The notes under the pieces: generated by a model
What the model was told of the DNA's origin: nothing
The model's input: the letters and a program-made list of their open reading frames with translations, nothing else
Databases searched by the model: none
Program-made: the position numbers and the translations under genes
Source of the DNA: a virus
Lineage: Duplodnaviria > Heunggongvirae > Uroviricota > Caudoviricetes
IMG/VR virus record: IMGVR_UViG_3300031143_000003
Coordinates: 19,287 to 83,286 of that record
DNA length: 64,000 nucleotides
Direction: 5' to 3' (one strand)
Shown here: positions 1 to 27,717 of the stretch, piece by piece
How the letters are laid out: the number at the start of each line of letters is the position of its first letter
How positions within the stretch are numbered: the first letter of the stretch is position 1

Positions 1-1488
1 TGGTATACCAATGTACTTGTCCCATAATGGTGCCTGAAATGATTGGAGTGCGCCTAGGCCATTGTTTGCAAACGGATTAGTACCTCCACTTATCAACGTG
101 CCATCATCACTAAATATGGTAAATGAATTATGCATCGTTTGGAATTCAACTTCAGCAATAGGTTGTTGTTCGCCTTTTACTTCAAAGTAATAGACATATA
201 TTGGTTTTCCAGCGTCTAGCTCGAGTTGATATGATTGAGTTGATATGCCTGGACCCAATGTATATATTTCAGATAGGTTGCCTTGTGATATGGCTAGATA
301 TGATTCACCCCAACCATCTGATGCATCATCTTCTATCGTAAGAGTATACTCACATATAGAAACGATTTCGTTTGTATTAGCTGTTTCATCATAATTGAAC
401 GCAGATATATCAGTACAGCCATATTGTTTTAACGTTTGACATGAGCCATACAACATAATATCTACAAGTGGATCATACTCAACATATTCAGAATCAGTGC
501 AACCTTCTAGCAACGGAATTGCACATGATGGTAGATATATGATACCGGTTTGTGCATCAAGGCCAAAATTAGCTGAGTCCAGTGTCCATATTAGATCCAT
601 TCCACCACCACATGGGTCTGTGTCTCCCAATATTTCAAAATTACCATCTGCTCCATTATTATATAATGATCCAGCTAATCCATCGCCGTATGAGTCACTA
701 AGAACAAGCTCAACGCCTGTAACTGGGACACATATATCATATGATATTGTTGTATTGGATTGATTGAATGTATACGACTGGGCTGATACTGCGTAGATTA
801 CTTCGCTATTTGAAATGTCTGTTAAGATCCAGCTAGTTTCACTAGGATATTGGTCTAGTGTAACTAACAATATCATTTTTGATGTACCATCTGTGCAACC
901 TATGCCGACACATGAATTGTCTTCTAATGTAGCCCAAGGATTGAAGTTTGGTGCATCTGGATTGGTACATCCAAGTATGATCAAGTTACCACATAACGTA
1001 TCGTCATTTATTGTTGCATCTGGATTGAAGTTGTCATAATTATTATCCATGCAACCTATGATAATGACATTTTCAATTGGTGGAGCACAAGGTGCTATAT
1101 CAAGAGTGTCGATTAATGAGAATCCGAAATCTGCAGATACATACATAATAGTGTCTTGGCAATCATTTTGTATCAATAGCCATCCGTCTGTTCCACCCCA
1201 TTGTGAAGCACCTAATCCATCGCCATATGAATCAAATATTGATAAAACACTATTACCGTGTAATAACAATGTGTCACTGTACAATGTGTTTGGTTGCAGG
1301 TTGGGATCATTTTGGAATATGACCGACGAGTCACTTTGTTGCACAATTTGCAATGATGTTTCTACTGGATAGTCGTCTGTTAATAGTTGAATATTGATCC
1401 AACTATCTTGTGCATTAGATGCCGTTGCAAACAGAAATAGTATTCCAATTAGGAATACTCTTCTGAACTGTTTTATTTTTTGAACCAT
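1..1488 (-). CDS. Secreted Cys-repeat protein with signal peptide (partial, runs off left edge; not in ORF track)
   Basis: Manual translation from ATG at 1488 shows no stop in the stretches checked, including the last 20 codons at the left edge. It begins MVQKIKQFRRVFLIGILFLFATASNA-QD (signal peptide-like) and carries four GC(T/M)D/N-x-x-x-x-(N/E)(F/Y)(N/D) repeats, e.g. GCTNPDAPNFNPWATLEDNSC. Confidence 0.75.
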   Translation of the reverse strand, partial: MVQKIKQFRRVFLIGILFLFATASNAQDSWINIQLLTDDYPVETSLQIVQQSDSSVIFQNDPNLQPNTLYSDTLLLHGNSVLSIFDSYGDGLGASQWGGTDGWLLIQNDCQDTIMYVSADFGFSLIDTLDIAPCAPPIENVIIIGCMDNNYDNFNPDATINDDTLCGNLIILGCTNPDAPNFNPWATLEDNSCVGIGCTDGTSKMILLVTLDQYPSETSWILTDISNSEVIYAVSAQSYTFNQSNTTISYDICVPVTGVELVLSDSYGDGLAGSLYNNGADGNFEILGDTDPCGGGMDLIWTLDSANFGLDAQTGIIYLPSCAIPLLEGCTDSEYVEYDPLVDIMLYGSCQTLKQYGCTDISAFNYDETANTNEIVSICEYTLTIEDDASDGWGESYLAISQGNLSEIYTLGPGISTQSYQLELDAGKPIYVYYFEVKGEQQPIAEVEFQTMHNSFTIFSDDGTLISGGTNPFANNGLGALQSFQAPLWDKYIGIP

Positions 1489-3440: not shown

Positions 3441-3582
3441 AATATCCTTTAATTTTGTTGCGATTTTATAACGCGGTCTAATTATGTTATATGTATTGTT
3501 AGCTTACCTGTATGATTATAAATATCAATCCAGATTGCGAGTATACACTATTTGCAATTATCTATAAATATACATCAATATA

Positions 3583-3828
3583 TTAATTTATCCTAACCTT
3601 CAACTTATCTATTGCCATAAGGAATTCAGACACGTTCATTGTCTTACCGGATGCTGATTTTATTGTGATTGTTGGTAGTAATTCAGGTTGCTTTTCAACG
3701 ATACCCATCAGCACCTTTAAGCCATATGCGCCCCAAAAGACACCAAACCCATTGTCTTCTCCTAATTCATTTGACTCAAAATATGTGTCTTTCTCACTAT
3801 CACTTGGCAATAATATGTAATATTTCAT
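3583..3828 (-). CDS. Hypothetical protein (81 aa)
   Basis: ORF track; tightly packed at the end of the sugar operon. Confidence 0.6.
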   Translation of the reverse strand: MKYYILLPSDSEKDTYFESNELGEDNGFGVFWGAYGLKVLMGIVEKQPELLPTITIKSASGKTMNVSEFLMAIDKLKVRIN

Positions 3829-3831
3829 AAT

Positions 3832-4464
3832 TTAGTCGAATTTATCTACACATATTGGAGGAGTATGTCTAACAATATATGTTGGCTCATTTTCAGTATA
3901 CAGCCTAATGTTTTTAGTTGTATGCAATACGTTGTTAATAAATCGCCAATCATGTGAGTATTCTGGGGTTGTTGTTATTGTTTTGGCTATGGATGATTTT
4001 ACAATTATTTCCTGATGGCCTACCTTGTCTTTTGCCCAGATGGGAGTTCTATAGCAATTATGTGGAGATACCCATGTCCTATATGCTGCCATGTCTAGAT
4101 CTGAATCCTCTACGCCACCTAGATATGTTTCAACATGATTGGGTAGCACAATATCGTCATTACCAATAAAGATTAGGTATTTACCAGTAGATTTAGCAAT
4201 ATACTCATTATAAATCGCATAACCATATCCACCAGTGTTTGTTGGTTTATTGTGTATTGTTAGATTCATGCCAAATGATTTCGCTACCCTTTCGTACAGT
4301 TTGGTTTCGCCAGTATCTACCATATGCTGGAATTCCGGACATCCATCGCCGATAACAAATACTTCAATATTGTTGGTTACGTTTTGATTTAGTATGCAAT
4401 TTATGGCTCGTCGGGTTCTACCTGGACGACCAAAACATGGCATTATGATAGTTAATCTATTCAT
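3832..4464 (-). CDS. Glycosyltransferase family 2 (GT-A)
   Basis: IIMPCFGR N-terminal strand, VIGDG and FIGNDD (DxD-like) motifs. Confidence 0.8.
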   Translation of the reverse strand: MNRLTIIMPCFGRPGRTRRAINCILNQNVTNNIEVFVIGDGCPEFQHMVDTGETKLYERVAKSFGMNLTIHNKPTNTGGYGYAIYNEYIAKSTGKYLIFIGNDDIVLPNHVETYLGGVEDSDLDMAAYRTWVSPHNCYRTPIWAKDKVGHQEIIVKSSIAKTITTTPEYSHDWRFINNVLHTTKNIRLYTENEPTYIVRHTPPICVDKFD

Positions 4465-5489
4465 TGTGATTCCTTATTATGTAGCAGTCCATATAGCATA
4501 TGATCAGAAAGTATCTGTTGACCAGACTTATTGTTATGTTTACTGAATGATGGTGATTCATCATGGTAGAATGCAATGTCCTTACCAAAATAATGCACGT
4601 TACCCAATATTAGACATAAATCAACGTCTTGGAAATTCTTTTCCAGTGATGGATTATATCCACCAATTGATACAAATTGTTCCAGTTGTATCATGTGCAT
4701 AGCTCCAGTTACAAATGCTGCGGTTGAATCAACTGATGCTGCTGGATCATTCGTGAACCGATACATGTGTATTGGCGAATATTGTAATGGACTCTCCGGT
4801 GTTTTAACAAACCCACCGCCACCGAATTGTATTGTGCCTCTCCACTTCCCCACCATACTTGGAAAGTTGTCTAGTATGTTCTGTGTATCACCATGTCCCA
4901 TTGAGTATTCATCTGGTGGATATAGCAACTTAGCACCTGATATTGTTGATCCAAGCTTATTGTGTTTTTCAATGAACCTATGTAGATTTGATATGTCTGA
5001 TATGAATAGGTCAGCATTCCACATTATTACCTGTGTATTTCCTAGATCATGGCATACCTTTGCAGCAAGATTACATAGCATCGAAAAATTGAATGTTGAG
5101 TCATAGTCGACTCTCAGGTACGATACGCAATATTTCGATGCAATACTACCAATATCTTCAGTTGACCTGTCGTCGACAATAATAACATTCATTAGATCAA
5201 ATGCACCCGTTTCCTTCATGCAATCCATACACATTGTAACTATGTCACTGCAATCACGAATTGGTATTATCGCAGTCGGCTTTGATGCATCATAATTCAA
5301 TTGTTTAGTAAATGAGCATTTGTAATCTACAAACCTATTTGCCAAAACAGCATTGTTAAAATTATTTACTGATATTGACGTCTGATTTTGTTTGTGTTCA
5401 AATGTGTTTCCAATATTACCTTTACCGAATATTGTGCATGTCATTGAATCTGACATGTCTTGTCTGAGATAGTTGGATATATTTTTCAT
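4461..5489 (-). CDS. Glycosyltransferase family 2 (GT-A)
   Basis: IIPIRD, VDDRS, NFSMLCN, WNAD, VTGA, GGY and QDVDLC motifs. ATG at 5489 overlaps the upstream TAA (TAATG coupling). Confidence 0.85.
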   Translation of the reverse strand: MKNISNYLRQDMSDSMTCTIFGKGNIGNTFEHKQNQTSISVNNFNNAVLANRFVDYKCSFTKQLNYDASKPTAIIPIRDCSDIVTMCMDCMKETGAFDLMNVIIVDDRSTEDIGSIASKYCVSYLRVDYDSTFNFSMLCNLAAKVCHDLGNTQVIMWNADLFISDISNLHRFIEKHNKLGSTISGAKLLYPPDEYSMGHGDTQNILDNFPSMVGKWRGTIQFGGGGFVKTPESPLQYSPIHMYRFTNDPAASVDSTAAFVTGAMHMIQLEQFVSIGGYNPSLEKNFQDVDLCLILGNVHYFGKDIAFYHDESPSFSKHNNKSGQQILSDHMLYGLLHNKESQ

Positions 5490-6622
5490 TATTTCCAATT
5501 GTTTATTAATGATACAATGGTTTCACAATCGTCGGCTGTCATAAATGGATGTATTGGTAGACTAACCAGTCGCTTTGCATTATCCCTAGTACGGACATTT
5601 ACATTCTCAGAATACAATTGATCGGCATATGCAACTGTTTCTTCTATGCAAATTGGATAATGTATTCCAACTTGAACACCATTTGATTCCATATACTCCA
5701 TAAATTCAGATCGCCTATTTTGATTAATCAATATTGGGTACACATGGTAAACTTGACTATTGCACCAGTCTGCTGATGTTGCCAACGGGTTTTCAACGTT
5801 GATATTATCTATCTTAGAATAATACTTAGCCCATTTGCGTCTTGCCGAATTCCAGTCTGATAGGTGAACTAGTTTTTCGTCCAATATTGCAGCCTGTATG
5901 GTATCTAATCTATAATTTGCACCCTTTACAATGTGCTCATATTTTACAATCGATCCCATGTTCCGTATCAACCGGCACTGGCTGTCTAAATGTGTGTTAT
6001 TTGTTGTAATCAAACCAGCATCTCCAGCAGCTCCCAGATTCTTTCCTGGATAACATGAGAATGCTGATATATCTCCAAATGTTCCAACGTTCTGTCCATC
6101 ACAAACAGCGCCATGTGCTTGAGAGCAATCTTCCAATACTCGTGCATTTGTTGACTTAGCTATTTTCATTATGCTGGTCATATCACATGGATGGCCATAC
6201 AGGTGGACTGGAATTATCAGGTGTTCTGATTTGGAGTCGACACTTATTGTTTTAAGTAGTTCATCTTCCAATAATCCTACGTCCATTTGAAAATGATCAT
6301 CATGGTCAATTAGATGAATCGTACAATCGCCGTTTAATGCTTGTTCTGGGCCAAATACAGTTGCAATGAATGTATTTGCTTGAGTATATATGTGAACATG
6401 CCTATCAAATCCCAATGCTAGAGTTGCGACACGTAATGCATCTGTTCCGTTTGATACCCCAATACAATGTGTATTATTATTCCATTTTGCAAAATTGCGT
6501 TCGAATGTTGCAACATCGGGTCCAAGTATAAACGGACAGTTTTCCAATATTGATGTTATTCTTGGGTAGGCTGAATCCTTGATGATTTCCCACTGTTTTC
6601 CTAAATCGTTGAATTTGATCAT
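5489..6622 (-). CDS. DegT/DnrJ/EryC1/StrS PLP-dependent sugar aminotransferase
   Basis: VSNGTDAL, PVHLYG, EDCSQAHGA, SCYPGKNLGAAGDAG (PLP Lys) and LSLP(I)HP-type motifs. Confidence 0.92.
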   Translation of the reverse strand: MIKFNDLGKQWEIIKDSAYPRITSILENCPFILGPDVATFERNFAKWNNNTHCIGVSNGTDALRVATLALGFDRHVHIYTQANTFIATVFGPEQALNGDCTIHLIDHDDHFQMDVGLLEDELLKTISVDSKSEHLIIPVHLYGHPCDMTSIMKIAKSTNARVLEDCSQAHGAVCDGQNVGTFGDISAFSCYPGKNLGAAGDAGLITTNNTHLDSQCRLIRNMGSIVKYEHIVKGANYRLDTIQAAILDEKLVHLSDWNSARRKWAKYYSKIDNINVENPLATSADWCNSQVYHVYPILINQNRRSEFMEYMESNGVQVGIHYPICIEETVAYADQLYSENVNVRTRDNAKRLVSLPIHPFMTADDCETIVSLINNWK

Positions 6623-6623
6623 A

Positions 6624-7511
6624 TTATTTCTCTATATTTTTATTTGAAATTACTGCTCGTCCTTCTTGTCCTTCCCAATCACGATTAACTCTAACGTCGT
6701 TGTTTTTGTCTGCAACGGCCTGTAGTAATATTGGGTTGATTCCAAGCTCAGTTGCTTGATGTATTAACGATGATAGATCTTTTGGAAAACAATGTCCACC
6801 GTAACCAAAATCTCCGTCTGGACCTGGTACATTCCAGTGCGAGTAACCTAACCTATCGTCATTGGTTGCATACTCTATTAATTTGTCGTAATCTAAGTCG
6901 AGTTTTTCACATATCTGATACATTTCATTTGCAAACGATACCTTTGTTGCCAAGAAACAGTTTGTTGTATACTTAACCATTTCAGCCATAGATGAACTTG
7001 TCTTTATAACTGGTACATTTGGAAATGCACGTTTAAATACCTGTTTAACAATGGTCGTTGCATCGCGAGGACCGCCAATAACGATTCTATTTTGATTTTT
7101 ATAATCATCAACTGCGTTAGCCTCTGTTAGGAATTCTGGATTGAATACAATGTCGATATGTGAAAGGGTATTGTTCCAATTTTGAGTTGTTCCTGGTGGG
7201 ATAGTTGATTTCACGACAAACGTTGAGCAGTATTGTACGTGCTTATCTGATAATGATGCGATATCATTAAGTTCAATCAATACGTCGTTTAGTATTCCCA
7301 AATGGCATGACCCATCCTCGCACATTGGTGTTGGTAAACAAACAAATATTACATCAGATACCTGAGATAAATGTTCGAATCCGCTCACACTCGAGCACTC
7401 ATCCTTGTATTTGTCATATGTTTCAACGTTAAAGTATTTTGACATACCTGCATTTACGGCTGATCCAACGAATCCTTGACCGACTATTCCTATTGTTCTA
7501 TTTCTTTCCAT
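6624..7511 (-). CDS. UDP-glucose/GDP-mannose 6-dehydrogenase family, lacking the C-terminal domain
   Basis: GIVGQGFVG, KSTIPPG, FNPEFL, K(Y)TTNCFLATKVSFANE and GYGGHCFPKD (catalytic Cys) motifs; only 295 aa. Confidence 0.85.
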   Translation of the reverse strand: MERNRTIGIVGQGFVGSAVNAGMSKYFNVETYDKYKDECSSVSGFEHLSQVSDVIFVCLPTPMCEDGSCHLGILNDVLIELNDIASLSDKHVQYCSTFVVKSTIPPGTTQNWNNTLSHIDIVFNPEFLTEANAVDDYKNQNRIVIGGPRDATTIVKQVFKRAFPNVPVIKTSSSMAEMVKYTTNCFLATKVSFANEMYQICEKLDLDYDKLIEYATNDDRLGYSHWNVPGPDGDFGYGGHCFPKDLSSLIHQATELGINPILLQAVADKNNDVRVNRDWEGQEGRAVISNKNIEK

Positions 7512-8365
7512 TACAGTTCCTTTATATAATCCATTAACCTGTCAACAGGCTTCCAATTCAAATTGTCTAGTGCGAAGTCATTCTCGCGTTTGGTTGCTCT
7601 GTAGTTACCAGGCTGATCACTTATGTATATACATTTAGTATTAAACCGACGGTTGAAGGCTCGGTAAACGTCATTCAGTGCATGGTTTGATCCAGTTCCA
7701 AGTTCCCAAGCATCATCTGGCGATACATCCGATTCGCTTATTTTTACTAGTCCATCAACAATATCGTCAATATGCGTAAAATCACGTTTCTGTTCACCAT
7801 CTCCAACAATTGTTATATCCTCTCCGTCTCTAGCTAAACGTCTCCATTTGCCAATTACCGCAGCCCAGTCGCCGTCTACAATTTCACCAGGTCCATATAC
7901 GTTATAGAACCTAACAATTTCTACGTCTAAGCCATACACTGACTTATACATTTTGCATAATTCTTCGCCTAAATGCTTCGCACTGGCATATGGCGATATA
8001 TGTGGATTATGCCATTTCGAAGATGATCCAGCATAAATAACCGATGCATTAATTTTTCTTGCATATCGCAATACTGCTTCTGTTCCGATTGTATTTACGC
8101 GGAATGTTTCAGATGGATTTTCAAATGATGGCTGTATTCTAGATAATGCGGCTAGATGGTATATTACATCAAAGTCGCTATCCATAAATGAAACGTTTTC
8201 AATGTCTCCAATGTGGTAGTTGCACCCATCCAATTCATTTGATACTAATCCACTATCATAATTGTCGATTGAATGTACATCATGGCCATTCAATATCAAC
8301 TGAGCTATCAGATTTGATCCAACAAACCCAGCTCCACCGGTAACCAATATTTTCTGTTTAGTCAT
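7511..8365 (-). CDS. NAD-dependent nucleotide-sugar epimerase/dehydratase (extended SDR)
   Basis: LVTGGAGFVG, HLAA, YASAK (YxxxK), RFYNVYGP and RDFTHIDD motifs. Confidence 0.9.
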   Translation of the reverse strand: MTKQKILVTGGAGFVGSNLIAQLILNGHDVHSIDNYDSGLVSNELDGCNYHIGDIENVSFMDSDFDVIYHLAALSRIQPSFENPSETFRVNTIGTEAVLRYARKINASVIYAGSSSKWHNPHISPYASAKHLGEELCKMYKSVYGLDVEIVRFYNVYGPGEIVDGDWAAVIGKWRRLARDGEDITIVGDGEQKRDFTHIDDIVDGLVKISESDVSPDDAWELGTGSNHALNDVYRAFNRRFNTKCIYISDQPGNYRATKRENDFALDNLNWKPVDRLMDYIKEL

Positions 8366-9236
8366 TTTCTAATATCTTCGTTATACTACGCGTTAATTGT
8401 TCTTGTTCAATATAAGAAAAATCCCTTACACCTAAAAATGATTCTATAGATATTTTCAGTGGGGATTCAGCATCAATTTCGATGTCAGCTGTCGAAGTGT
8501 TATTTGTATATGTTATTTTGCCAGTCATATCATCCCAATTCAAGTATGAATCATCTGCAAACGTTACAATTACTTCTCTATTCTTTTTAGCGTGTTCCCA
8601 ACTTGCATTGATAAATACACTAACCTTGCCGTATGTTAAACTACCAACACATGAATCGTCTTGTTCTGCCTGAACTGTGTCTCGACGATAATTAATCCAT
8701 GTTGACGATGATGGATCTACTCCAAACATTTTCTGGACAATTGATACATAGTGAGAGGCTAGATCATATTTTGCATTGCAGTCATATCGTACCGGTCCCT
8801 TATTTAGGAAATTCATAGATATCGATTTAACCTGTCCATATTTTTCTGAATTTACCATATCAATTATTGCATTTGCATGCATATTGAATGTAAATAGCCA
8901 ATCGACAAATAAGCCACAATTATTGTTTTTTGCTATAGTATACATTTCATCGACTTCAGCTGTTGTCATACCTAATGGTTTCTCACAAAATACGTCTACA
9001 CCATTCGATAAAAAATGCTTAACTACTTCATGATGGAATGTTGCAGGTACTGCGACGAATACCTTGTCTACATTTAGGGTAGTGTAATCTGACTCTAATT
9101 TGGTATAGTCACGTAATACGCCAGTATCTACATAGTTTGGTTCACATACAGTGACGTCCACTCCCAATCCAATTAGATTTTTGTATAGTATTTTACCCCA
9201 ATATCCAAATCCAACTAATCCTATTTTATTTTCCAT
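8358..9236 (-). CDS. Gfo/Idh/MocA oxidoreductase (WbpB/WlbA-like sugar 3-dehydrogenase candidate)
   Basis: GLVGFGYWG, VFCEKP and DLASH motifs; lies next to the DegT and acetyltransferase genes. Confidence 0.85.
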   Translation of the reverse strand: MENKIGLVGFGYWGKILYKNLIGLGVDVTVCEPNYVDTGVLRDYTKLESDYTTLNVDKVFVAVPATFHHEVVKHFLSNGVDVFCEKPLGMTTAEVDEMYTIAKNNNCGLFVDWLFTFNMHANAIIDMVNSEKYGQVKSISMNFLNKGPVRYDCNAKYDLASHYVSIVQKMFGVDPSSSTWINYRRDTVQAEQDDSCVGSLTYGKVSVFINASWEHAKKNREVIVTFADDSYLNWDDMTGKITYTNNTSTADIEIDAESPLKISIESFLGVRDFSYIEQEQLTRSITKILEND

Positions 9237-9684
9237 TATTCATTCCCTTTATTTCGGCTGCTTTGCCATATACTATTGAGTGTGCTGGAACGTCTTTTGT
9301 TACGACAGCGCCTGCTCCAATAATTGCTCCGTATCCAATTGATACTGGCAAAATTGTTGCATTTGATCCAATCCTAACATTGTTACCAATGATTGTCCTA
9401 CGCTGGATCCAGTTTTCAAGTGGAGCATCGAATTTATCATTAATAAACATTACGCCATGTGCAATAAAACAATCGTCTCCGATTATCGTATCTGAACATA
9501 CAAATGTATGGCTGCTTATCCTGGTTCGTTTTCCAATTGATGCGCCTGATTGTATTTCTACAAATGGTCCAACAAATGATCCCTCTCCAATATTGCAGCC
9601 ATATATGTTAACTGGTTCAATTATTTCAACATCATCATGTATGTTGGAAGTACTATCGTTAATGTTCGCTTGTTTTGTTTTCAT
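9226..9684 (-). CDS. Left-handed beta-helix sugar N-acetyltransferase (WbpD/QdtC-like)
   Basis: Hexapeptide repeats, VMFIND and IGSNATIL...IGAGAVVTKDVP motifs. Confidence 0.88.
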   Translation of the reverse strand: MKTKQANINDSTSNIHDDVEIIEPVNIYGCNIGEGSFVGPFVEIQSGASIGKRTRISSHTFVCSDTIIGDDCFIAHGVMFINDKFDAPLENWIQRRTIIGNNVRIGSNATILPVSIGYGAIIGAGAVVTKDVPAHSIVYGKAAEIKGMNNGK

Positions 9685-9687
9685 ACT

Positions 9688-9713
9688 GTAAATATAAGCA
9701 AAATAGCTTACAC
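9688..9713 (-). promoter_or_regulatory. Bipartite early/middle-type promoter motif (GTGTAA-N10-TTATATTTAC) heading the sugar operon
   Basis: Same spacing as seven other copies; ends 3 nt before the ATG at 9684. Confidence 0.6.
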
Positions 9714-9857
9714 CGGAAAGTTTTTAACTAGTTTTTTTAGTTTAATTTCCAATCTAGCTAATTCTTTTGTCATTCCTTGCATTACCCATCCATCGTAATG
9801 TCCTCTTGCCGCTAGTTCCCCACGCAAGTAGTTTATTCTTTCTTGTAGTTTTTCCAT
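9708..9857 (-). CDS. Small hypothetical protein (49 aa, not in track)
   Basis: Manual translation MEKLQERINYLRGELAARGHYDGWVMQGMTKELARLEIKLKKLVKNFPV; preceded by AGGA and fills the gap exactly. Confidence 0.6.
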   Translation of the reverse strand: MEKLQERINYLRGELAARGHYDGWVMQGMTKELARLEIKLKKLVKNFPV

Positions 9858-9864
9858 TGTTTTC

Positions 9865-10302
9865 CTATTGTATTGTTCTGATGTCTAGATCAAATCTGTA
9901 GTCTATTAGTTGGACTAGTCCCATTTTATTTGGGAAGATTGTCCTATAACTATTTGAATACATTGAATCCATGTTACTAGACAATTTACTGTGATAGAAC
10001 CGCTGTGATGATTCATTCATGATCAATTTTGGTATTTCTAGTGCACGTTTTCTGTATTTCGGTATTATCCTAACACCAGTTCTCCTAGCCATTGCATTGA
10101 ACTGAATACTTGACATTAAATTTAAGTTTAGCACATGTACCTTGTTTTCCCAAATTGGATTTAGTACCAGCCACATGTAATTATCAGATTTATTGTCTAG
10201 GTTAGTATACCTATTTTGTATTACCATACCCTTCTGCAAAGCAGACTTTGGTATAATAACCGAAGATTGCTTTGCAGTTAAGTGTTGGTTATGATAATTC
10301 AT
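9865..10302 (-). CDS. Hypothetical protein (145 aa)
   Basis: ORF track; contiguous with its neighbours. Confidence 0.6.
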   Translation of the reverse strand: MNYHNQHLTAKQSSVIIPKSALQKGMVIQNRYTNLDNKSDNYMWLVLNPIWENKVHVLNLNLMSSIQFNAMARRTGVRIIPKYRKRALEIPKLIMNESSQRFYHSKLSSNMDSMYSNSYRTIFPNKMGLVQLIDYRFDLDIRTIQ

Positions 10303-10779
10303 TTAGATGTCGCCTAAACTGTACCCATTAACGTTTTTTGCAGCTTCTATGAATGTAGCATAGTATTCTGCACCATCCATATCTATTTTCTGCGTATAAT
10401 CAACGTCCTTTGAATACTGTGCTTTTTCTGATATAGTCAGTGTTTTTATTTTGGCATAACACCACCTAATACTTTCAATTTGTTCTCCAACTGGAAATAT
10501 CATTGCCTCACCAGTATTCATTGTCGTTGGATACCAGTATTTTTCACCATCATCAAATCGAAGGGCCTTTATTGCTGCCGGCATCTTCTGCTCATATGTT
10601 GATATGTCAAAATCTGGGTTATCCTTGTGGTTTAATGGATAGTTTTGAGTATAATATCCAGAACTAAGGTCCATCTCAGATTGACCGTTTTTATCGTCGT
10701 ATTCAAGTAACACTTGTTGTTTTCCGGTTATTGGTGATTTTGCCCAATATTCTTCACCGATTTTTTCAATATCATTCAT
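10303..10779 (-). CDS. Hypothetical protein coupled to GT4 gene
   Basis: ORF track; TAATG overlap with the GT4 stop at 10779. Confidence 0.65.
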   Translation of the reverse strand: MNDIEKIGEEYWAKSPITGKQQVLLEYDDKNGQSEMDLSSGYYTQNYPLNHKDNPDFDISTYEQKMPAAIKALRFDDGEKYWYPTTMNTGEAMIFPVGEQIESIRWCYAKIKTLTISEKAQYSKDVDYTQKIDMDGAEYYATFIEAAKNVNGYSLGDI

Positions 10780-12020
10780 TAGTTGCTCCCTATTTGTGGT
10801 ACATATTGTCCAATTATCTTATTAAAATCAGAATTCATTTTTTTGATTGAAAAATTATCCTTAATATACTGTGTCTGTTTTCTAGATCGTTGCATATGTT
10901 TCTTGTATTGCTTATGTACATCTCTGATTATTCCAGATGCATGATTATAGTCAACATAAAACCATTTTGATTCTGGCAATATTACATCCTTCCATACAGC
11001 TGACTTGTGCACGTTTCGTAATGTGCCTGTTAACGGTATACAGTGTTCAGATAAAAAGTCAACGTGTCCAGACCAGTTAGGGTACATTATTGGTTTACCG
11101 GTTATTCCGAATTCCAATAGTGGACGTCCAAATCCTTCGCCGTGCGTGAAGCTGATCATTGCCTTAACTTTATTGTGATTATATAAGCCATTTAATTCCT
11201 GTTGTGTCATGTCGCCATGTATCAGGTATATCTTTGGCAATATTGCACCATCTACCGATTTGTAAATTTTAGATATCTTTTCAAGTATAGATTCCCTATC
11301 GGTTAATGAGAATGTTGCAGATGACGTCTTAAGTATTAGCGCTGGCTGATTTCGCTGTGCAATGCCCTTAAATGTTTCTAAGAATGTACGAATCATGCCT
11401 CCAACATCTTTCCTATCATGTGAGAAATCACCAGCTAGCCAATGTCCAACAAATAGATAGCAGAATTCTTCTGGTATAGTTGATATGTCGGTTGATACTA
11501 TTTCAGGAATATCATCAGTCTTTATGAACGTAGACAAGTCAAGTCCCTCAAACAATACAACAATTTCGGGGTTAACTGATAACGATCTAACTGTCTCATT
11601 TGTCTTTGAATCTCGTATGTCAAACGTACTATTTTTCAAGGATGTTTTTGCATGCTCAGATGGCACAATTATTAAATCCATGTTATTGCATCCTTCAACC
11701 CATTGACTAGATGCAGAAGTTGTTTCAATACCCGCTGTTATTCCAATGTTATATTTTCCAACCTTTTGAAATTCATTTGGTACAGTTATTTGTACCCAAA
11801 TATCTGGTTGTTCATCAAAGTTTTTGCGCATGATACGACTAGTTATTTCAATATCGTCATCCGTTAGTGCGTTTCTACTACATGATCCCCAACGCTGATC
11901 CATTATTTTTACGTCGAATCTGTTCATTGCAATTAGACTTCTAATTATGTCTCGACTGTGATCACCATACCCGCTTCTACTCGATGCTGGGCAACTTATA
12001 ATTAATGTCTGTTTATTCAT
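10779..12020 (-). CDS. Glycosyltransferase family 4-like (GT-B)
   Basis: SRSGYG N-terminal motif, LFVGHWL and HGEGFGRPLLE (E-x7-E). Confidence 0.85.
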   Translation of the reverse strand: MNKQTLIISCPASSRSGYGDHSRDIIRSLIAMNRFDVKIMDQRWGSCSRNALTDDDIEITSRIMRKNFDEQPDIWVQITVPNEFQKVGKYNIGITAGIETTSASSQWVEGCNNMDLIIVPSEHAKTSLKNSTFDIRDSKTNETVRSLSVNPEIVVLFEGLDLSTFIKTDDIPEIVSTDISTIPEEFCYLFVGHWLAGDFSHDRKDVGGMIRTFLETFKGIAQRNQPALILKTSSATFSLTDRESILEKISKIYKSVDGAILPKIYLIHGDMTQQELNGLYNHNKVKAMISFTHGEGFGRPLLEFGITGKPIMYPNWSGHVDFLSEHCIPLTGTLRNVHKSAVWKDVILPESKWFYVDYNHASGIIRDVHKQYKKHMQRSRKQTQYIKDNFSIKKMNSDFNKIIGQYVPQIGSN

Positions 12021-13423
12021 TATACTAGGGCTCCTGATGGGTATTGTTGTTTTTTGATTGATGCATCTATTAACGTGTATCGTTGTCTAGGCTTAAACGT
12101 TGATATGCATGTGTCAATTGACTTCGACATTGTATCTGTCATACCTTTGGCATTAAATCCATTTTCAATTGCCCAATCTCTTCCAATTGCGCCATGATCT
12201 GATCTATTTGATTTTGGCATATTGTGCCAATACATTAACCCAGATGTTATCTGGTCAATACTAACCCTAGAATCATATATGTATGGTGTTGGTGGAGAGC
12301 CTTGTAAATTTATTTGGGGCCATAATGGATACGTCCATGATCCGTGATCCTCACTTATTTTTCCAGTGCTATTGCTTGGTGTATCTACAGTAAAATCATC
12401 TATTGTAATATACTCTCCTCGATTGTTTCTGAATCCCATTTGATCTTGTAGTCCACCTAGTACTGATGCTATTGTTGGTGTTCCTGACATAATTGCCTCC
12501 ATGTGGGATAATCCAAATCCTTCAGCTGAGCTTGGATTACATACGACATCTGCCATATTGTACAAATAGTTCATGGCTATATTTGGTAGCTTTTCTGCAC
12601 TGAATATAACGTCATATTCCGGACATAGTGCTGCGACTACTGCTGGTAAGTCGGTACCATTCTCATCAACTGGATCAGTATGCAATAACAATGCGCATTT
12701 TGACGATTCTTCAGGCGTCAATTTGTCACACATAGCTTTAAATCCAACTATTAAATCGGATATTGATTTTCGTCTAATGTTTCTGCTGTTTAGTAATGCA
12801 ATGAAGTCGTAATCTTTTCCAGATGTAGCAGTTTTTTTGAATGCTTCATATTTTGCATCATTTACTATTGGAAAAAATACATTTTCATCTATACCATGTG
12901 GAACGTATGTTAGGTCTACACCATCTAGTCTTGGTTTACGTTGACATACATGTTTGTTTATATTGTATGTCTGTTTTGATATTGCCATAAGCAAATCGCA
13001 TGATTCATATGCATTTTCATTCCAATGTGGGTATGGTAAATCGTCCCAAATATTGTAATACATAATTGGAATGTGCTGGCGGATCTCATGCTCCATCTGA
13101 TATAGCCAACCCCAAAATCTAGGATCAGTAAAATGCAATATAGCATCAATTTCTTCAGTTGCCAATATATGTCGTATTAAATCGGGAGTACCATATCCAG
13201 AAACGGGATATATCTTAACACTTGCATCCAATACACCGGTATCATCTGCTACAGCTTGTGATAAATCCAATTGCTTTCCAGCCTCAGGATGATTCATAGC
13301 TCCACCGATCTGTACCCAGTCGTACCTATCTACTGTTCCAGTGATTATTGATTTTGACATTGTACCAATGCCAGAATTCAATCTAAAGTCATCACCAAGG
13401 AATAGTATTTTCTTCTTCTTCAT
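12020..13423 (-). CDS. Glycosyltransferase family 4-like (GT-B)
   Basis: DD.R..SGIG, VPHGI, RNIRRK and SAEGFGLSHME (E-x7-E) motifs. Confidence 0.87.
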   Translation of the reverse strand: MKKKKILFLGDDFRLNSGIGTMSKSIITGTVDRYDWVQIGGAMNHPEAGKQLDLSQAVADDTGVLDASVKIYPVSGYGTPDLIRHILATEEIDAILHFTDPRFWGWLYQMEHEIRQHIPIMYYNIWDDLPYPHWNENAYESCDLLMAISKQTYNINKHVCQRKPRLDGVDLTYVPHGIDENVFFPIVNDAKYEAFKKTATSGKDYDFIALLNSRNIRRKSISDLIVGFKAMCDKLTPEESSKCALLLHTDPVDENGTDLPAVVAALCPEYDVIFSAEKLPNIAMNYLYNMADVVCNPSSAEGFGLSHMEAIMSGTPTIASVLGGLQDQMGFRNNRGEYITIDDFTVDTPSNSTGKISEDHGSWTYPLWPQINLQGSPPTPYIYDSRVSIDQITSGLMYWHNMPKSNRSDHGAIGRDWAIENGFNAKGMTDTMSKSIDTCISTFKPRQRYTLIDASIKKQQYPSGALV

Positions 13424-13467
13424 AATATAACCTACTTTTTTGTTGTGTTCATATAACGTTTATTTAG

Positions 13468-13476
13468 TATAAGTAT
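13468..13476 (-). promoter_or_regulatory. Late-type promoter motif ATACTTATA upstream of the GT4 pair
   Basis: Matches the ATA(T/C)TTATA motif found upstream of many structural genes. Confidence 0.5.
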
Positions 13477-13480
13477 CATT

Positions 13481-13882
13481 TTAATTTATGATAACGACCG
13501 ATTTTCCCAACTTTTTTGTATGTTTTATCGTGTCCATTGGACCATTTGCTTTCACGTTTGATGGTATAAACGCAATTAGACAATTAATATCCTTTGCTAA
13601 CATTTTATTTCGATGAAAAAAGTTTTTTGGCGCGTAATCTTTGTTGTAAAAATGCTCATTCATGGCTGAATAAAGGTTCTTTTGTGTATGTGATGGATTA
13701 TGTTCTATATATTTGCAGCCTAACACTAGTGCATATTTTCTAATGAATTTGTCTGCTCCAGCTCCACTTCCACTCGATATTATTACCAATTCTTCACCAA
13801 ATCGCTGTTTTAGCTGATATATTACATCTTTTATTTTGCGGCCATTGTTGTAATAATTACTACCTATTAATCCTATCCGCAT
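13481..13882 (-). CDS. SLOG/DUF2493-like (YspA-related) protein
   Basis: MRIGLIGS, IISSGSGAGAD, FHRN..LA and G(P)MDTI..TKKLGK motifs. Start moved to the second Met. Confidence 0.65.
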   Translation of the reverse strand: MRIGLIGSNYYNNGRKIKDVIYQLKQRFGEELVIISSGSGAGADKFIRKYALVLGCKYIEHNPSHTQKNLYSAMNEHFYNKDYAPKNFFHRNKMLAKDINCLIAFIPSNVKANGPMDTIKHTKKLGKSVVIIN

Positions 13883-14799
13883 CGTAGTTGTCTTTGTTTT
13901 GGTGGACATAGGTCGTGCTCTTTCTTAAACGGACAGTATGTACAATCAGTTTTATATGCAGGATATTCTGAATCTTTGTTGTATGATCCATCTGCGTTAA
14001 ATGCAGTTTCAACAAACTCCTTCATAATATCATCAGTCTTTTTTATGGATGGTTTACCAGATGCCGGCTTATAAACTTGTACTCTAGGTATCTCAAAATC
14101 TGCGCCTTCCCATATCTTACGTTTTACAATAAAATATTCTATTTCAATATTTTTTATATCAACGTCATATTGTCTAGCAAAAAAGTGCTTGTATAGCCTA
14201 AGTTGGTTTCCCTCTTTCTTGCGCTTCTTATCTTTCCATCCCATATATGAAGTTTTAATGTCGATGATTTTAATTGTATCACCATCTTTAATAACCAAAT
14301 CCATGAATCCCATGAACATTATATTTGAGTTGTATTCTACTTCATGAAATATTGGCATTTCAATACCAACTAATTCCATTTTTGTTTTTGAAAAATATCT
14401 ACTTCTAGTTTTTTTGAAATATTCAATAATAGCGACACCGTCTAAATAAAAATCTCCCATTTCAGTTGGATTACTGAAGTGGTCACCACCTTGCTCCTCT
14501 ACTCGAGTTGCATAGTCAGTGGACATTTTTGTCTTTAACATTTCTATCAGGTCAAGTTGTTCAGCCGCTACGATAGATGTATTGTACATTATATCTAAAT
14601 ATTCCTGTAGAACCTCATGCATCGCTGTTCCAAACACTAAGAACATATTTGGTTCAAAGCGTTTGTGTCCATCAATTCTCTGTAGTTTCCAAGATAGTGG
14701 GCAATTTGCATATGTTCCGAGTTGAGAATACGATATCGTTTTCTTTCCCATCTTTTTTGCAGCTATTGCGTAATCCAGTGGTGTCTTAAGTTGTGCCAT
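13873..14799 (-). CDS. PD-(D/E)XK nuclease (RecB/Cas4-like exonuclease)
   Basis: ISYSQL..Y..CP, FGTAMHE, GFMDLV...IIDIKTS, QL..Y and C-terminal CxxC-x8-C motifs. Confidence 0.82.
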   Translation of the reverse strand: MAQLKTPLDYAIAAKKMGKKTISYSQLGTYANCPLSWKLQRIDGHKRFEPNMFLVFGTAMHEVLQEYLDIMYNTSIVAAEQLDLIEMLKTKMSTDYATRVEEQGGDHFSNPTEMGDFYLDGVAIIEYFKKTRSRYFSKTKMELVGIEMPIFHEVEYNSNIMFMGFMDLVIKDGDTIKIIDIKTSYMGWKDKKRKKEGNQLRLYKHFFARQYDVDIKNIEIEYFIVKRKIWEGADFEIPRVQVYKPASGKPSIKKTDDIMKEFVETAFNADGSYNKDSEYPAYKTDCTYCPFKKEHDLCPPKQRQLRCG

Positions 14800-22388: not shown

Positions 22389-22778
22389 TTATTCTTTACT
22401 AAATTTCTGTCGTACCCTATCTGATATTGGTACCGCATTTCCTTGATCGTCTATTCTTACAAATTTTATATTTGTTGCCAATATTGTATGCTGCTGACCA
22501 GTATATACATTGTGTGCTCTTGCTTCCAATGTTAGTGTTACTGATGAATTGCCTATTTTGTTTACACAAGCATATATTTTCAGTAACTGTCCCTGTCTAG
22601 CAGGCCGTACAAATTCACATTTGTCTATTAACACTGTTACAACTCGAGGAGTGTCGCAAACTTGCGCTGCGAACCCTGCTCCTGCTGCATCGATCCATGC
22701 TAATAGTTTTCCTCCGAAGAGGTTACCGTGAAAACCTAAATCAGATGTTTTTACAATGTGTGTTGATATTAAATCCAT
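22389..22778 (-). CDS. HotDog-fold acyl-CoA thioesterase
   Basis: DL.FHGNLFGG.LL.WID.A, VT...D...F and K.GNSSV motifs. Confidence 0.85.
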   Translation of the reverse strand: MDLISTHIVKTSDLGFHGNLFGGKLLAWIDAAGAGFAAQVCDTPRVVTVLIDKCEFVRPARQGQLLKIYACVNKIGNSSVTLTLEARAHNVYTGQQHTILATNIKFVRIDDQGNAVPISDRVRQKFSKE

Positions 22779-27691: not shown

Positions 27692-27717
27692 GTAAATATA
27701 AGAAATATATTTGACAT
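27692..27717 (-). promoter_or_regulatory. Bipartite early/middle-type promoter
   Basis: ATGTCA-N10-TTATATTTAC. Confidence 0.6.

Follow-up and report, generated by a model that had tools for sequence, protein, structure and literature searches.

Gene content and promoter motifs of the cluster

The window analysed here is a stretch of 64,000 nucleotides, bases 19287-83286 of the 147,286-bp IMG/VR virus record IMGVR_UViG_3300031143_000003 (Caudoviricetes; ~86% complete according to CheckV). Seven genes on the minus strand, encoding sugar-tailoring enzymes and glycosyltransferases, fill positions 3832-9684. Judged from gene order and homology, the region 3832-9713 represents the variable cargo of an island for glycan assembly. 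This island, which spans 3583-13477 and extends beyond the run on both sides, is fixed in a lineage of large T4-like phages from aquatic habitats.

In the direction of transcription, the run starts with a hexapeptide (LbH) sugar N-acetyltransferase of 152 amino acids (AA) (9226-9684; Pfam Hexapep, 9.7e-18), followed by a Gfo/Idh/MocA NAD-dependent oxidoreductase (292 AA; 8358-9236; Pfam GFO_IDH_MocA, 1.5e-14) and an extended short-chain dehydrogenase/reductase (SDR) of the epimerase type (284 AA; 7511-8365; Epimerase family, 1.7e-46). Further downstream, a short two-domain homolog of UDP-glucose/GDP-mannose dehydrogenases (short UGDH, 295 AA; 6624-7511) and a DegT/DnrJ/EryC1 aminotransferase of the C3 class, dependent on pyridoxal phosphate (PLP), are encoded (377 AA; 5489-6622; Pfam, 4.9e-79). 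Two GT-A glycosyltransferases complete the run, namely GT2a (342 AA; 4461-5489, with the ATG at 5489 as start) and the short GT2b (210 AA; 3832-4464; Pfam Glycos_transf_2, 3.6e-11). TAATG overlaps were found at the SDR/UGDH and DegT/GT2a junctions and an ATGA overlap at GT2a/GT2b; Gfo/SDR and LbH/Gfo overlap by 8 and 11 bases, respectively, and the other junctions are gaps of 1-3 bases. An earlier note made from the DNA letters (the original prediction) had described an overlapping seven-gene run of these enzyme classes at this place, and coordinates, Pfam and NCBIfam matches and junctions confirm it.

An early/middle promoter-like motif (9688-9719, minus strand) precedes the run and consists of TTTCCGGTGT, ~12 bases and GCTTATATTTAC. 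The motif TTATATTTAC, with the TTTCCGGTGT element upstream of it, ends 3 bases ahead of the ATG of the LbH gene, so that an mRNA starting at this promoter would be leaderless or nearly so. Other copies of the motif lie 25-45 bases upstream of a start codon. The core 10-mer occurs six times in the window, every time on the gene strand, compared to 0.56 expected copies, and the same bipartite motif is present ahead of GroES (17208), ahead of the hydroxymethylase operon described below (22365), at 27701 and 29880, and in early-gene regions of the genome. The cluster thus has its own predicted promoter, of a class common to the hydroxymethylase operon, as had been proposed. Since the motif also stands ahead of GroES/GroEL and many early genes, sharing it is not specific evidence for DNA as the target. 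Scans for σ70 promoters and terminators gave results at chance level. No RNA run holding the cluster was found, and the timing of expression is therefore read from the motifs only.

None of the island proteins has a membrane-like segment (top 19-residue hydropathy < 1.8). Searches for Bac_transf, WecA-type GT4 (Glycos_transf_4), Wzx (Polysacc_synt) and Wzy (Wzy_C) found none across the 147-kb record, with control genomes being positive, which agrees with the earlier statement that no flippase, polymerase or undecaprenyl-transferase is encoded.

A conserved island with exchangeable cargo

Near-identical copies of the cluster were found in 15 assembled contigs and 20 marine metagenome runs. A megablast search of the cluster DNA against 50,697 phage records gave zero matches, i.e. 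no cultured phage at the DNA level, and the family-B polymerase of the phage has < 26% identity to any cultured phage. Single-protein locus searches were weak (none for GT2a; one 5.9-kb contig for the β-glucosyltransferase (BGT) described below), and relatives were reached with alignments. Records and contigs are given with working labels (e.g. G004, L077). The closest relative is G004 with 54-62% identity, and the closest cultured relative by gene order is Flavobacterium phage immuto. G001 and G002 are complete genomes of 169 kb and 182 kb.

The island is ordered as follows: a PD-(D/E)XK nuclease, a small SLOG protein, the GT-B transferases GT4a (467 AA; 12020-13423, minus strand) and GT4b (413 AA; 10779-12020, minus strand), small open reading frames, the variable sugar genes and a gene for 81 AA. 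The matches obtained for the GT4 pair are phrog_2170, Glycos_transf_1 and GT4-conflict. The frame of nuclease, GT4a and GT4b is shared by the window, G001, G002, G004, L030, L032, L077, immuto and Mel-JY01, of which L030 and L032 are Tara and other marine contigs, L077 is a 22-kb contig and Mel-JY01 is a Microcystis phage. GT4a was found in 11 of the 12 related records and in all seven of those with ≥ 90% completeness, and is 46-47% identical across phages of Flavobacterium and of Microcystis.

The genes behind this frame differ between relatives. L030 carries RmlC, NeuB, CMP-transferase, WbqC and TauD genes, and L032 carries GT15, TOD1_MUCI70 and methyltransferases. In G004, epimerases and several SDRs, a split transketolase-like pair and a DegT protein of 471 AA are encoded ahead of the phage's own triad of LbH, Gfo and DegT. 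This G004 cargo (L079, 393-2029), in the equivalent slot, hints at the synthesis of a branched-chain deoxysugar.

The tailoring genes of the window are distributed as two units. Short UGDH was found in 18 viral loci; an SDR homolog lies ≤ 2.2 kb upstream in 12 of the 18 and Gfo or LbH in none of them. The Gfo gene adjoins DegT always, in > 30 viral loci, mostly with LbH ahead, and the complete triad occurs without UGDH in ~30 loci and in G004. Those Gfo-DegT loci which were examined are other glycan islands of T4-like phages, rich in GT2, GT17, GT25, methyltransferase and heptose genes. In the window, the UGDH and SDR pair is lodged between Gfo and DegT, and the two modules may therefore supply two separate donors instead of one linear product. 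From this distribution, the cluster is best described as a mosaic of mobile modules (LbH-Gfo-DegT; SDR with short UGDH) and not as one dedicated pathway.

Three small genes lie between the GT4 pair and the cassette (all minus strand), encoding 158 AA (10303-10779), a basic protein of 145 AA (9865-10302) and 49 AA (9708-9857). The 158- and 145-AA proteins are retained in G004 with 28-30% identity; no family match was obtained for these two, and an ESM Atlas look-up of the 158-AA protein gave none either. An acidic protein of 81 AA (3583-3828, minus strand) is encoded at the end of the island in the window, in G002 and in G004 whatever cargo precedes it (also in L003, L069 and L068); the preceding gene is short UGDH in L003 and G002 and DegT in G004. 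Neither a family match nor an Atlas match was found for this protein. It was considered as the missing C-terminal domain of UGDH, which was rejected, since it is too short, follows DegT in the UGDH-less G004 and has no family match.

A late-promoter-like motif, GATACTTATA (13468-13477, minus strand), with one mismatch to the late consensus of the genome, is located 44 bases before the start of GT4a, and the exact late motif precedes the GT4a homologs in G001 and G002. Two further late-promoter motifs lie beyond the 81-AA gene (3517-3525 and 3563-3571).

The SLOG/YspA-like protein between nuclease and GT4a (13481-13909, 142 AA) is basic (23 K+R versus 9 D+E). It is kept at that position in G001, G002, G004 and L077, and is absent there in immuto. 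In L077, a PALP-family PLP-dependent enzyme (13746-14639) is inserted between the PD-(D/E)XK nuclease gene and the SLOG gene.

Downstream of the late promoters which follow the island, a 957-AA protein is encoded (window 1-1488, running off the window start), which contains a type IX secretion C-terminal sorting domain (Por_Secre_tail). Its part within the window is strongly acidic (66 D+E versus 9 K+R), and the G004 counterpart has 1127 AA (L079, 15484-18867). Candidate roles of this protein are those of a fibre or decoration protein, of a phage-encoded cargo of the type IX secretion system or of a glycan acceptor. Because of this domain and the Flavobacterium-infecting nearest cultured relative, the host is likely a member of the Bacteroidota.

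Predicted functions of the encoded enzymes

The best solved relatives of the LbH protein are the N-acetyltransferase 7s3u, FdtD (4mzu), WlbB (3mqg, 2.2e-13) and QdtC (3fs8). For DegT, the top PDB matches are 7b0d, 7n63, WlaRG (5u1z), QdtB (3frk) and DesV (2oga) with E-62 to E-69, and the match to WbpE is weaker (~2e-44). The best NCBIfam match of the Gfo protein is an archaeal UDP-GlcNAc 3-dehydrogenase (2.4e-19), weak at 70 bits given the cut-off of 450, and no WlbA or WbpB chains are among its PDB matches at E ≤ 1e-3. We infer that the protein is a nucleotide-sugar 3-dehydrogenase. No score of any enzyme attains the NCBIfam equivalog cut-off. As chemistry, the predicted series of 3-oxidation (Gfo), 3-amination (DegT) and N-acetylation (LbH) yielding a 3-acetamido sugar is well founded. 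The 3-amino/3-acetamido sugar of the original prediction was retained, as DegT and LbH group with the C3-specific enzymes QdtB, WlaRG, DesV, WbpE, WlbB, QdtC and FdtD.

The same three predicted steps, oxidation at C3 by Gfo, transamination at C3 by DegT and N-acetylation by LbH, are known from the WbpA/B/E/D set of Pseudomonas, the WlbA/C/B set of Bordetella and an archaeal set. For DegT and LbH, the likeness holds at class level only, with QdtB, WlaRG and DesV as well as 7s3u and FdtD outscoring WbpE and WlbB. In contrast to these sets, the dehydrogenase in the window is of the UDP-glucose type and lacks the UDP-binding domain, DegT and LbH are nearer to enzymes of dTDP-3-amino-3,6-dideoxyhexoses, and the pair of dehydrogenase and SDR is inherited separately from the triad in relatives. 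The idea of a complete, single Wbp-like pathway was abandoned, because UGDH is truncated and not WbpA-type and because the modules are separate in relatives.

The short UGDH matches the UDP-glucose 6-dehydrogenases AglM (4.2e-43) and TuaD (6.3e-37), WecC-type enzymes at 3.5e-13 and TviB at 2e-3, and scores apart from the WecC/TviB/Cap5O group. It retains GxGxxG and the catalytic Cys (GGHCFPKD), but stops behind the central domain, so that the C-terminal UDP-binding domain is missing (no PF03720). The '6-dehydrogenase' of the original prediction is thus a short two-domain form of the UDP-glucose type. The short form was found in 11 relatives (272-286 AA) with a conserved C-terminal tail R-x-D-x-D-W...G-R-A, and in the ESM Atlas, proteins of 278-293 AA which share this two-domain layout make up three clusters composed of viral members only. 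By these comparisons, the short form is no accident and represents a virus-specific subfamily of 272-295 AA. The Atlas also contains viral versions fused to a cytidylyltransferase-like domain.

The solved chain nearest to the SDR is UXS1. Compared to UXS1, SSS replaces the TSE motif (the catalytic Glu is absent) and 17 residues are gone between the catalytic Ser and YxxxK. This compact form is conserved in phages with 40-63% identity. A function as UDP-glucuronate decarboxylase (UDP-xylose route) was rejected, as Ser aligns at the position of the catalytic Glu; the SDR is presumably an epimerase, i.e. a UDP-hexuronate or UDP-hexose 4-epimerase.

For GT2b, NCBIfam gave weak matches to transferases of the WcaA and PglI types. 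GT2a is sub-threshold in Pfam. Its family comprises at least 278 homologs with 40-64% identity, mostly on long viral contigs, and is marked by an invariant DDRS, by W-N-x-D-L and by an N-terminal β-hairpin extension. The structure model of GT2a is a confident GT-A fold (predicted local distance difference test 90.9). In a fold comparison, which covered GT2a alone among the island transferases, polypeptide GalNAc-transferases came first (the top 23 rows; Z up to 18.9, root-mean-square deviation 3.3, 234 residues), and the chondroitin polymerase K4CP (Z 16.9) and TarS (15.5) ranked lower. The resemblance of the model to polypeptide transferases is a hint of a protein acceptor at the level of a shared fold only. 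The net charge of the transferases did not discriminate between DNA and protein as acceptor.

A separate, predicted module for cytosine glucosylation

Elsewhere in the window, a protein similar to thymidylate synthase (TS) matches CMP/dCMP hydroxymethylases at ~1e-20 versus thymidylate synthases at ~1e-8. It has Asp at the position of Asn177 of ThyA, and Asp169 is kept. According to the rule of Lee et al. 2026 (PMC13326640), Asp169 separates hydroxymethylases from 5-hydroxycytosine (5hoC) synthases, and a reading of the enzyme as 5hoC synthase was rejected since Asp169 is retained. The neighbouring GT-B protein is a GT63 homolog of the BGT of phage T4 (1.8e-35). Hydroxymethylase, DUF6378, BGT and a dUTPase-like gene form their own operon 12 kb off the cassette. 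Judged by these matches, the 5-hydroxymethylcytosine (hmC) module is real and separate from the island. Directly upstream of the promoter of this operon and next to a ribonucleotide reductase gene, a thioesterase gene of the 4HBT fold is located (22389-22778).

The original prediction had tied the cluster to gp42 and BGT and had asked for their co-occurrence in related genomes to be checked. This was done, and the tie was not found: all modules and the GT4 pair occur in near-complete genomes without either gene. None of the 32 GT2a-bearing IMG/VR records, of which five are 92-100% complete, has a TS-like or BGT gene. The carriers of SDR and UGDH, G001 and G002 (both 100% complete), have neither hydroxymethylase nor BGT, and the same applies to immuto. 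BGT was found in 0 of 23 records with the triad (Gfo-DegT with or without LbH); one fragment contains a TS homolog, and G037 (96% complete) has neither gene. Parts of the island without TS homolog or BGT are present in G001, G002, G016, G021, G023, G026, G029, G037 and immuto. As a control of the search, G004 was positive for both genes (1.5e-156 and 3.1e-119). The hmC genes and the island were found together only in G000, G004 and the L077 contig, whose BGT is 78% identical to that of the window. The hmC-bearing G004 has no GT2a, GT2b or short UGDH.

A tblastn search against the 50,697 phage records gave no match for GT2a and eight records for GT4a, none of which is a known DNA transferase such as GT63 BGT, a JGT/TarP-like GT-A enzyme or the GT-B enzymes of RB69 and DLP3. 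A search for the TET/JBP family gave no match in 12 records, but none in the control genomes either. On L078, a 54.6-kb contig which translates only with TGA as Trp, the region 10001-14430 contains a BGT homolog of 42% identity with a CofD-like gene and an IspD-like nucleotidyltransferase gene as neighbours. A TS homolog and a dCMP deaminase are encoded close by, and together these genes may constitute another set for cytosine hypermodification.

Phage immuto allows a comparison with measured DNA chemistry. Its island has the same frame of polymerase, GroES, GroEL, DUF3310, PD-(D/E)XK, GT4a and GT4b, followed by sugar-tailoring genes and further transferases, with soluble enzymes throughout; identities to the window are 46.5% for GT4a (gp181), 46% for GT4b (gp180) and 41% for the SDR. 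It differs in having no ortholog of GT2a, GT2b, Gfo or short UGDH, as its cargo comprises other aminotransferases, methyltransferases and a mannosyltransferase. Furthermore, hydroxymethylase and BGT are absent from immuto, its DNA is modified with fdPreQ1 and its polymerase is annotated as family A. In immuto virion DNA, liquid chromatography with UV detection and tandem mass spectrometry found dA, dC, dT and fdPreQ1 replacing dG, and no glycosylated nucleoside (10.1101/2023.04.13.536721). Immuto carries the syntenic island; therefore, the island does not glycosylate DNA in this cultured member.

Proposed function and alternative explanations

With moderate confidence, we favour the reading that the island is a glycan-assembly locus with swappable cargo, which would build a variable glycan on a phage-encoded, most likely virion, protein. 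In this scheme, the LbH-Gfo-DegT module would oxidize a UDP-hexose (UDP-GlcNAc or UDP-Glc) at C3, transaminate and N-acetylate it, giving a 3-acetamido-3-deoxy sugar, and the module of epimerase-type SDR and short UGDH would provide a hexuronate donor, UDP-GlcA or UDP-GalA. From these donors and from sugars supplied by the host, GT2a, GT2b and the GT4 pair would build a short oligosaccharide in the cytoplasm. The acceptor would be Ser/Thr of a phage-encoded virion protein, e.g. of Ser/Thr-rich fibres. The donor-synthesis genes would be expressed from the early/middle promoter and the GT4 pair with the late-type motif. Independently of the island, the operon of hydroxymethylase, DUF6378, BGT and dUTPase would make glucosyl-hmC DNA.

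Fibre-like structural proteins are the richest in Ser/Thr genome-wide (23-26% versus a median of 13.5%). The conservation of GT4a at 46-47% identity across phages of different host phyla points to an acceptor intrinsic to the phage rather than to the host envelope, and the sequence comparisons thus favour a phage-encoded acceptor over host envelope intermediates. Together with GT4a conservation, the fold of GT2a, the late motif before GT4a and the Ser/Thr-rich fibres are the reasons for which a protein acceptor is favoured. The original prediction had named DNA or protein, not O-antigen, as acceptor. The DNA part is disfavoured by the co-occurrence data and by immuto DNA, and protein stands as the favoured option.

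Giant viruses may provide a parallel. Chloroviruses and mimiviruses have glycosylation clusters for capsid and fibrils, respectively, with virus-encoded soluble transferases, and giant viruses also have amino-sugar pathways. The resemblance lies in decoration in the cytoplasm without lipid carriers and in clusters which vary between clades. As far as the citation of Freeman et al. 2023 in PMC12619734 goes, autonomous virion glycosylation is known for the mycobacteriophages Che8, Corndog and Myrna, whose gene sets are much smaller than the window island.

Several points weigh against this reading. The protein acceptor is derived from exclusion and fold resemblance, and sharing a fold does not demonstrate a function. 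For the five tailoring enzymes, substrates and products are predicted from family membership only, and the short UGDH lacks the domain which usually holds UDP, so that a UDP-sugar may not be its substrate. Only three immuto proteins, GT4a, GT4b and the SDR, have > 40% identity to their counterparts in the window; with so few shared genes, its DNA chemistry bears on the seven genes via island position and not via orthology. The phage itself belongs to a small subclade having hmC and BGT (G000, G004, L077), and phage DNA can bear glycans as large as trisaccharides, for which generic GT-A and GT-B enzymes use phage-made sugar nucleotides (PMC13326640; 10.1101/2023.12.21.572611). Finally, the cassette promoter is of the early/middle class and replication genes border the island.

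A remodelling of the host envelope is considered unlikely, yet it survives best among the alternatives. Here, the soluble transferases would act on undecaprenyl-linked intermediates of O-antigen, capsule or O-glycosylation at the cytoplasmic face, host flippases and ligases would export the product, and the changed surface would block, e.g., superinfection or re-adsorption of progeny. Similar genes, located in the variable parts of pelagimyophage and cyanomyophage genomes, are read in this way, as 'LPS-related', in the literature (PMC7029224; PMC12801897). These are likewise large aquatic T4-like phages, with non-syntenic blocks of transferase, epimerase and UGDH genes varying between close relatives (Zaragoza-Solas et al. 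2020, PMC7029224). The pelagimyophage blocks sit in a 'host recognition cluster' with the tail fibres, whereas the window island, with its fixed GT4 pair, is placed between the replication module and the structural module; their published reading, modification of the host O-chain, differs from the one favoured here (PMC7029224). Soluble GT2 and GT4 enzymes are common among O-antigen transferases, 3-acetamido uronates are classic sugars of O-antigens and N-glycans, and an early/middle promoter would fit a function before lysis. However, genes for an initiating phosphoglycosyl transferase, a flippase, a polymerase or a ligase are missing from the record, the phages of different phyla which share GT4a meet differing envelope intermediates, and the fold of GT2a is closest to polypeptide transferases. 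A lytic cycle would also leave little time for surface turnover.

An extension of the glucose of glucosyl-hmC by GT2a or GT2b, perhaps with the GT4 pair, which would yield cytosines carrying an oligosaccharide and block nucleases specific for glucosyl-hmC, appears improbable. In its favour are the gp42/MilA-type hydroxymethylase (Asp169; Asp at Asn177), the T4 BGT homolog (1.8e-35), the promoter motif common to cassette and hydroxymethylase operon, the absence of lipid-carrier machinery from the record and the precedent of di- and trisaccharides on phage cytosines together with phage-made UDP-sugars. Known systems of DNA glycosylation (gp42 with α- and β-glucosyltransferases in T4; arabinosyl-5hoC in RB69 and DLP3, PMC13326640; Pyle et al., 10.1101/2023.12.21.572611) resemble this genome in the gp42-type enzyme and the GT63 BGT, and also pair several GT-A/GT-B enzymes with phage-encoded synthesis of sugar nucleotides. 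In those systems, however, the transferase genes lie together with the gene of the base-modifying enzyme and vary along with it, whereas the island mostly occurs without such an enzyme in relatives: all modules and the island frame are present in near-complete genomes without TS homolog or BGT. Immuto DNA has no glycosyl base, and the nearest hmC-bearing relative, G004, carries other cargo and none of GT2a, GT2b and short UGDH. In addition, the searches of the 50,697 phage records linked neither GT2a nor GT4a to a known DNA transferase by sequence, TarS/TarP-like enzymes rank well below polypeptide transferases in the GT2a fold comparison, and BGT lies in its own self-contained operon. A narrower version, in which the island was recruited within the hmC subclade (this phage, G004 and L077) to extend glucosyl-hmC with a 3-acetamido sugar and/or a hexuronate, is similarly improbable; if true, virion DNA of the subclade would have a larger, chemically new hypermodification.

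Least probable is a product outside the virion, i.e. a glycosylated non-structural phage protein or host protein, or a free oligosaccharide or glycoside acting as decoy, signal or protective solute, for which it speaks that BshA/MshA-type GT4 enzymes make small glycosides, that no single identified acceptor is tied to the island and that the island lies between the replication and structural modules, outside the virion module, but at least four transferases and a serotype-like turnover of cargo point to an exposed, selected oligosaccharide and the polypeptide-transferase-like GT2a to a protein acceptor.

Significance

The phage is useful as it has a glucosyl-hmC module and a glycan island in one genome. 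The virus-specific short UGDH without UDP-binding domain is a small biochemical puzzle of its own. If the favoured reading, a variable glycan on a phage-encoded protein, is true, large T4-like phages of marine and freshwater habitats would routinely coat a protein of their own with a strain-specific glycan, built by a fixed transferase core and swappable sugar cassettes, akin to a bacterial serotype locus. This would have a bearing on host recognition, on particle stability and on the recognition of phage particles in the sea.

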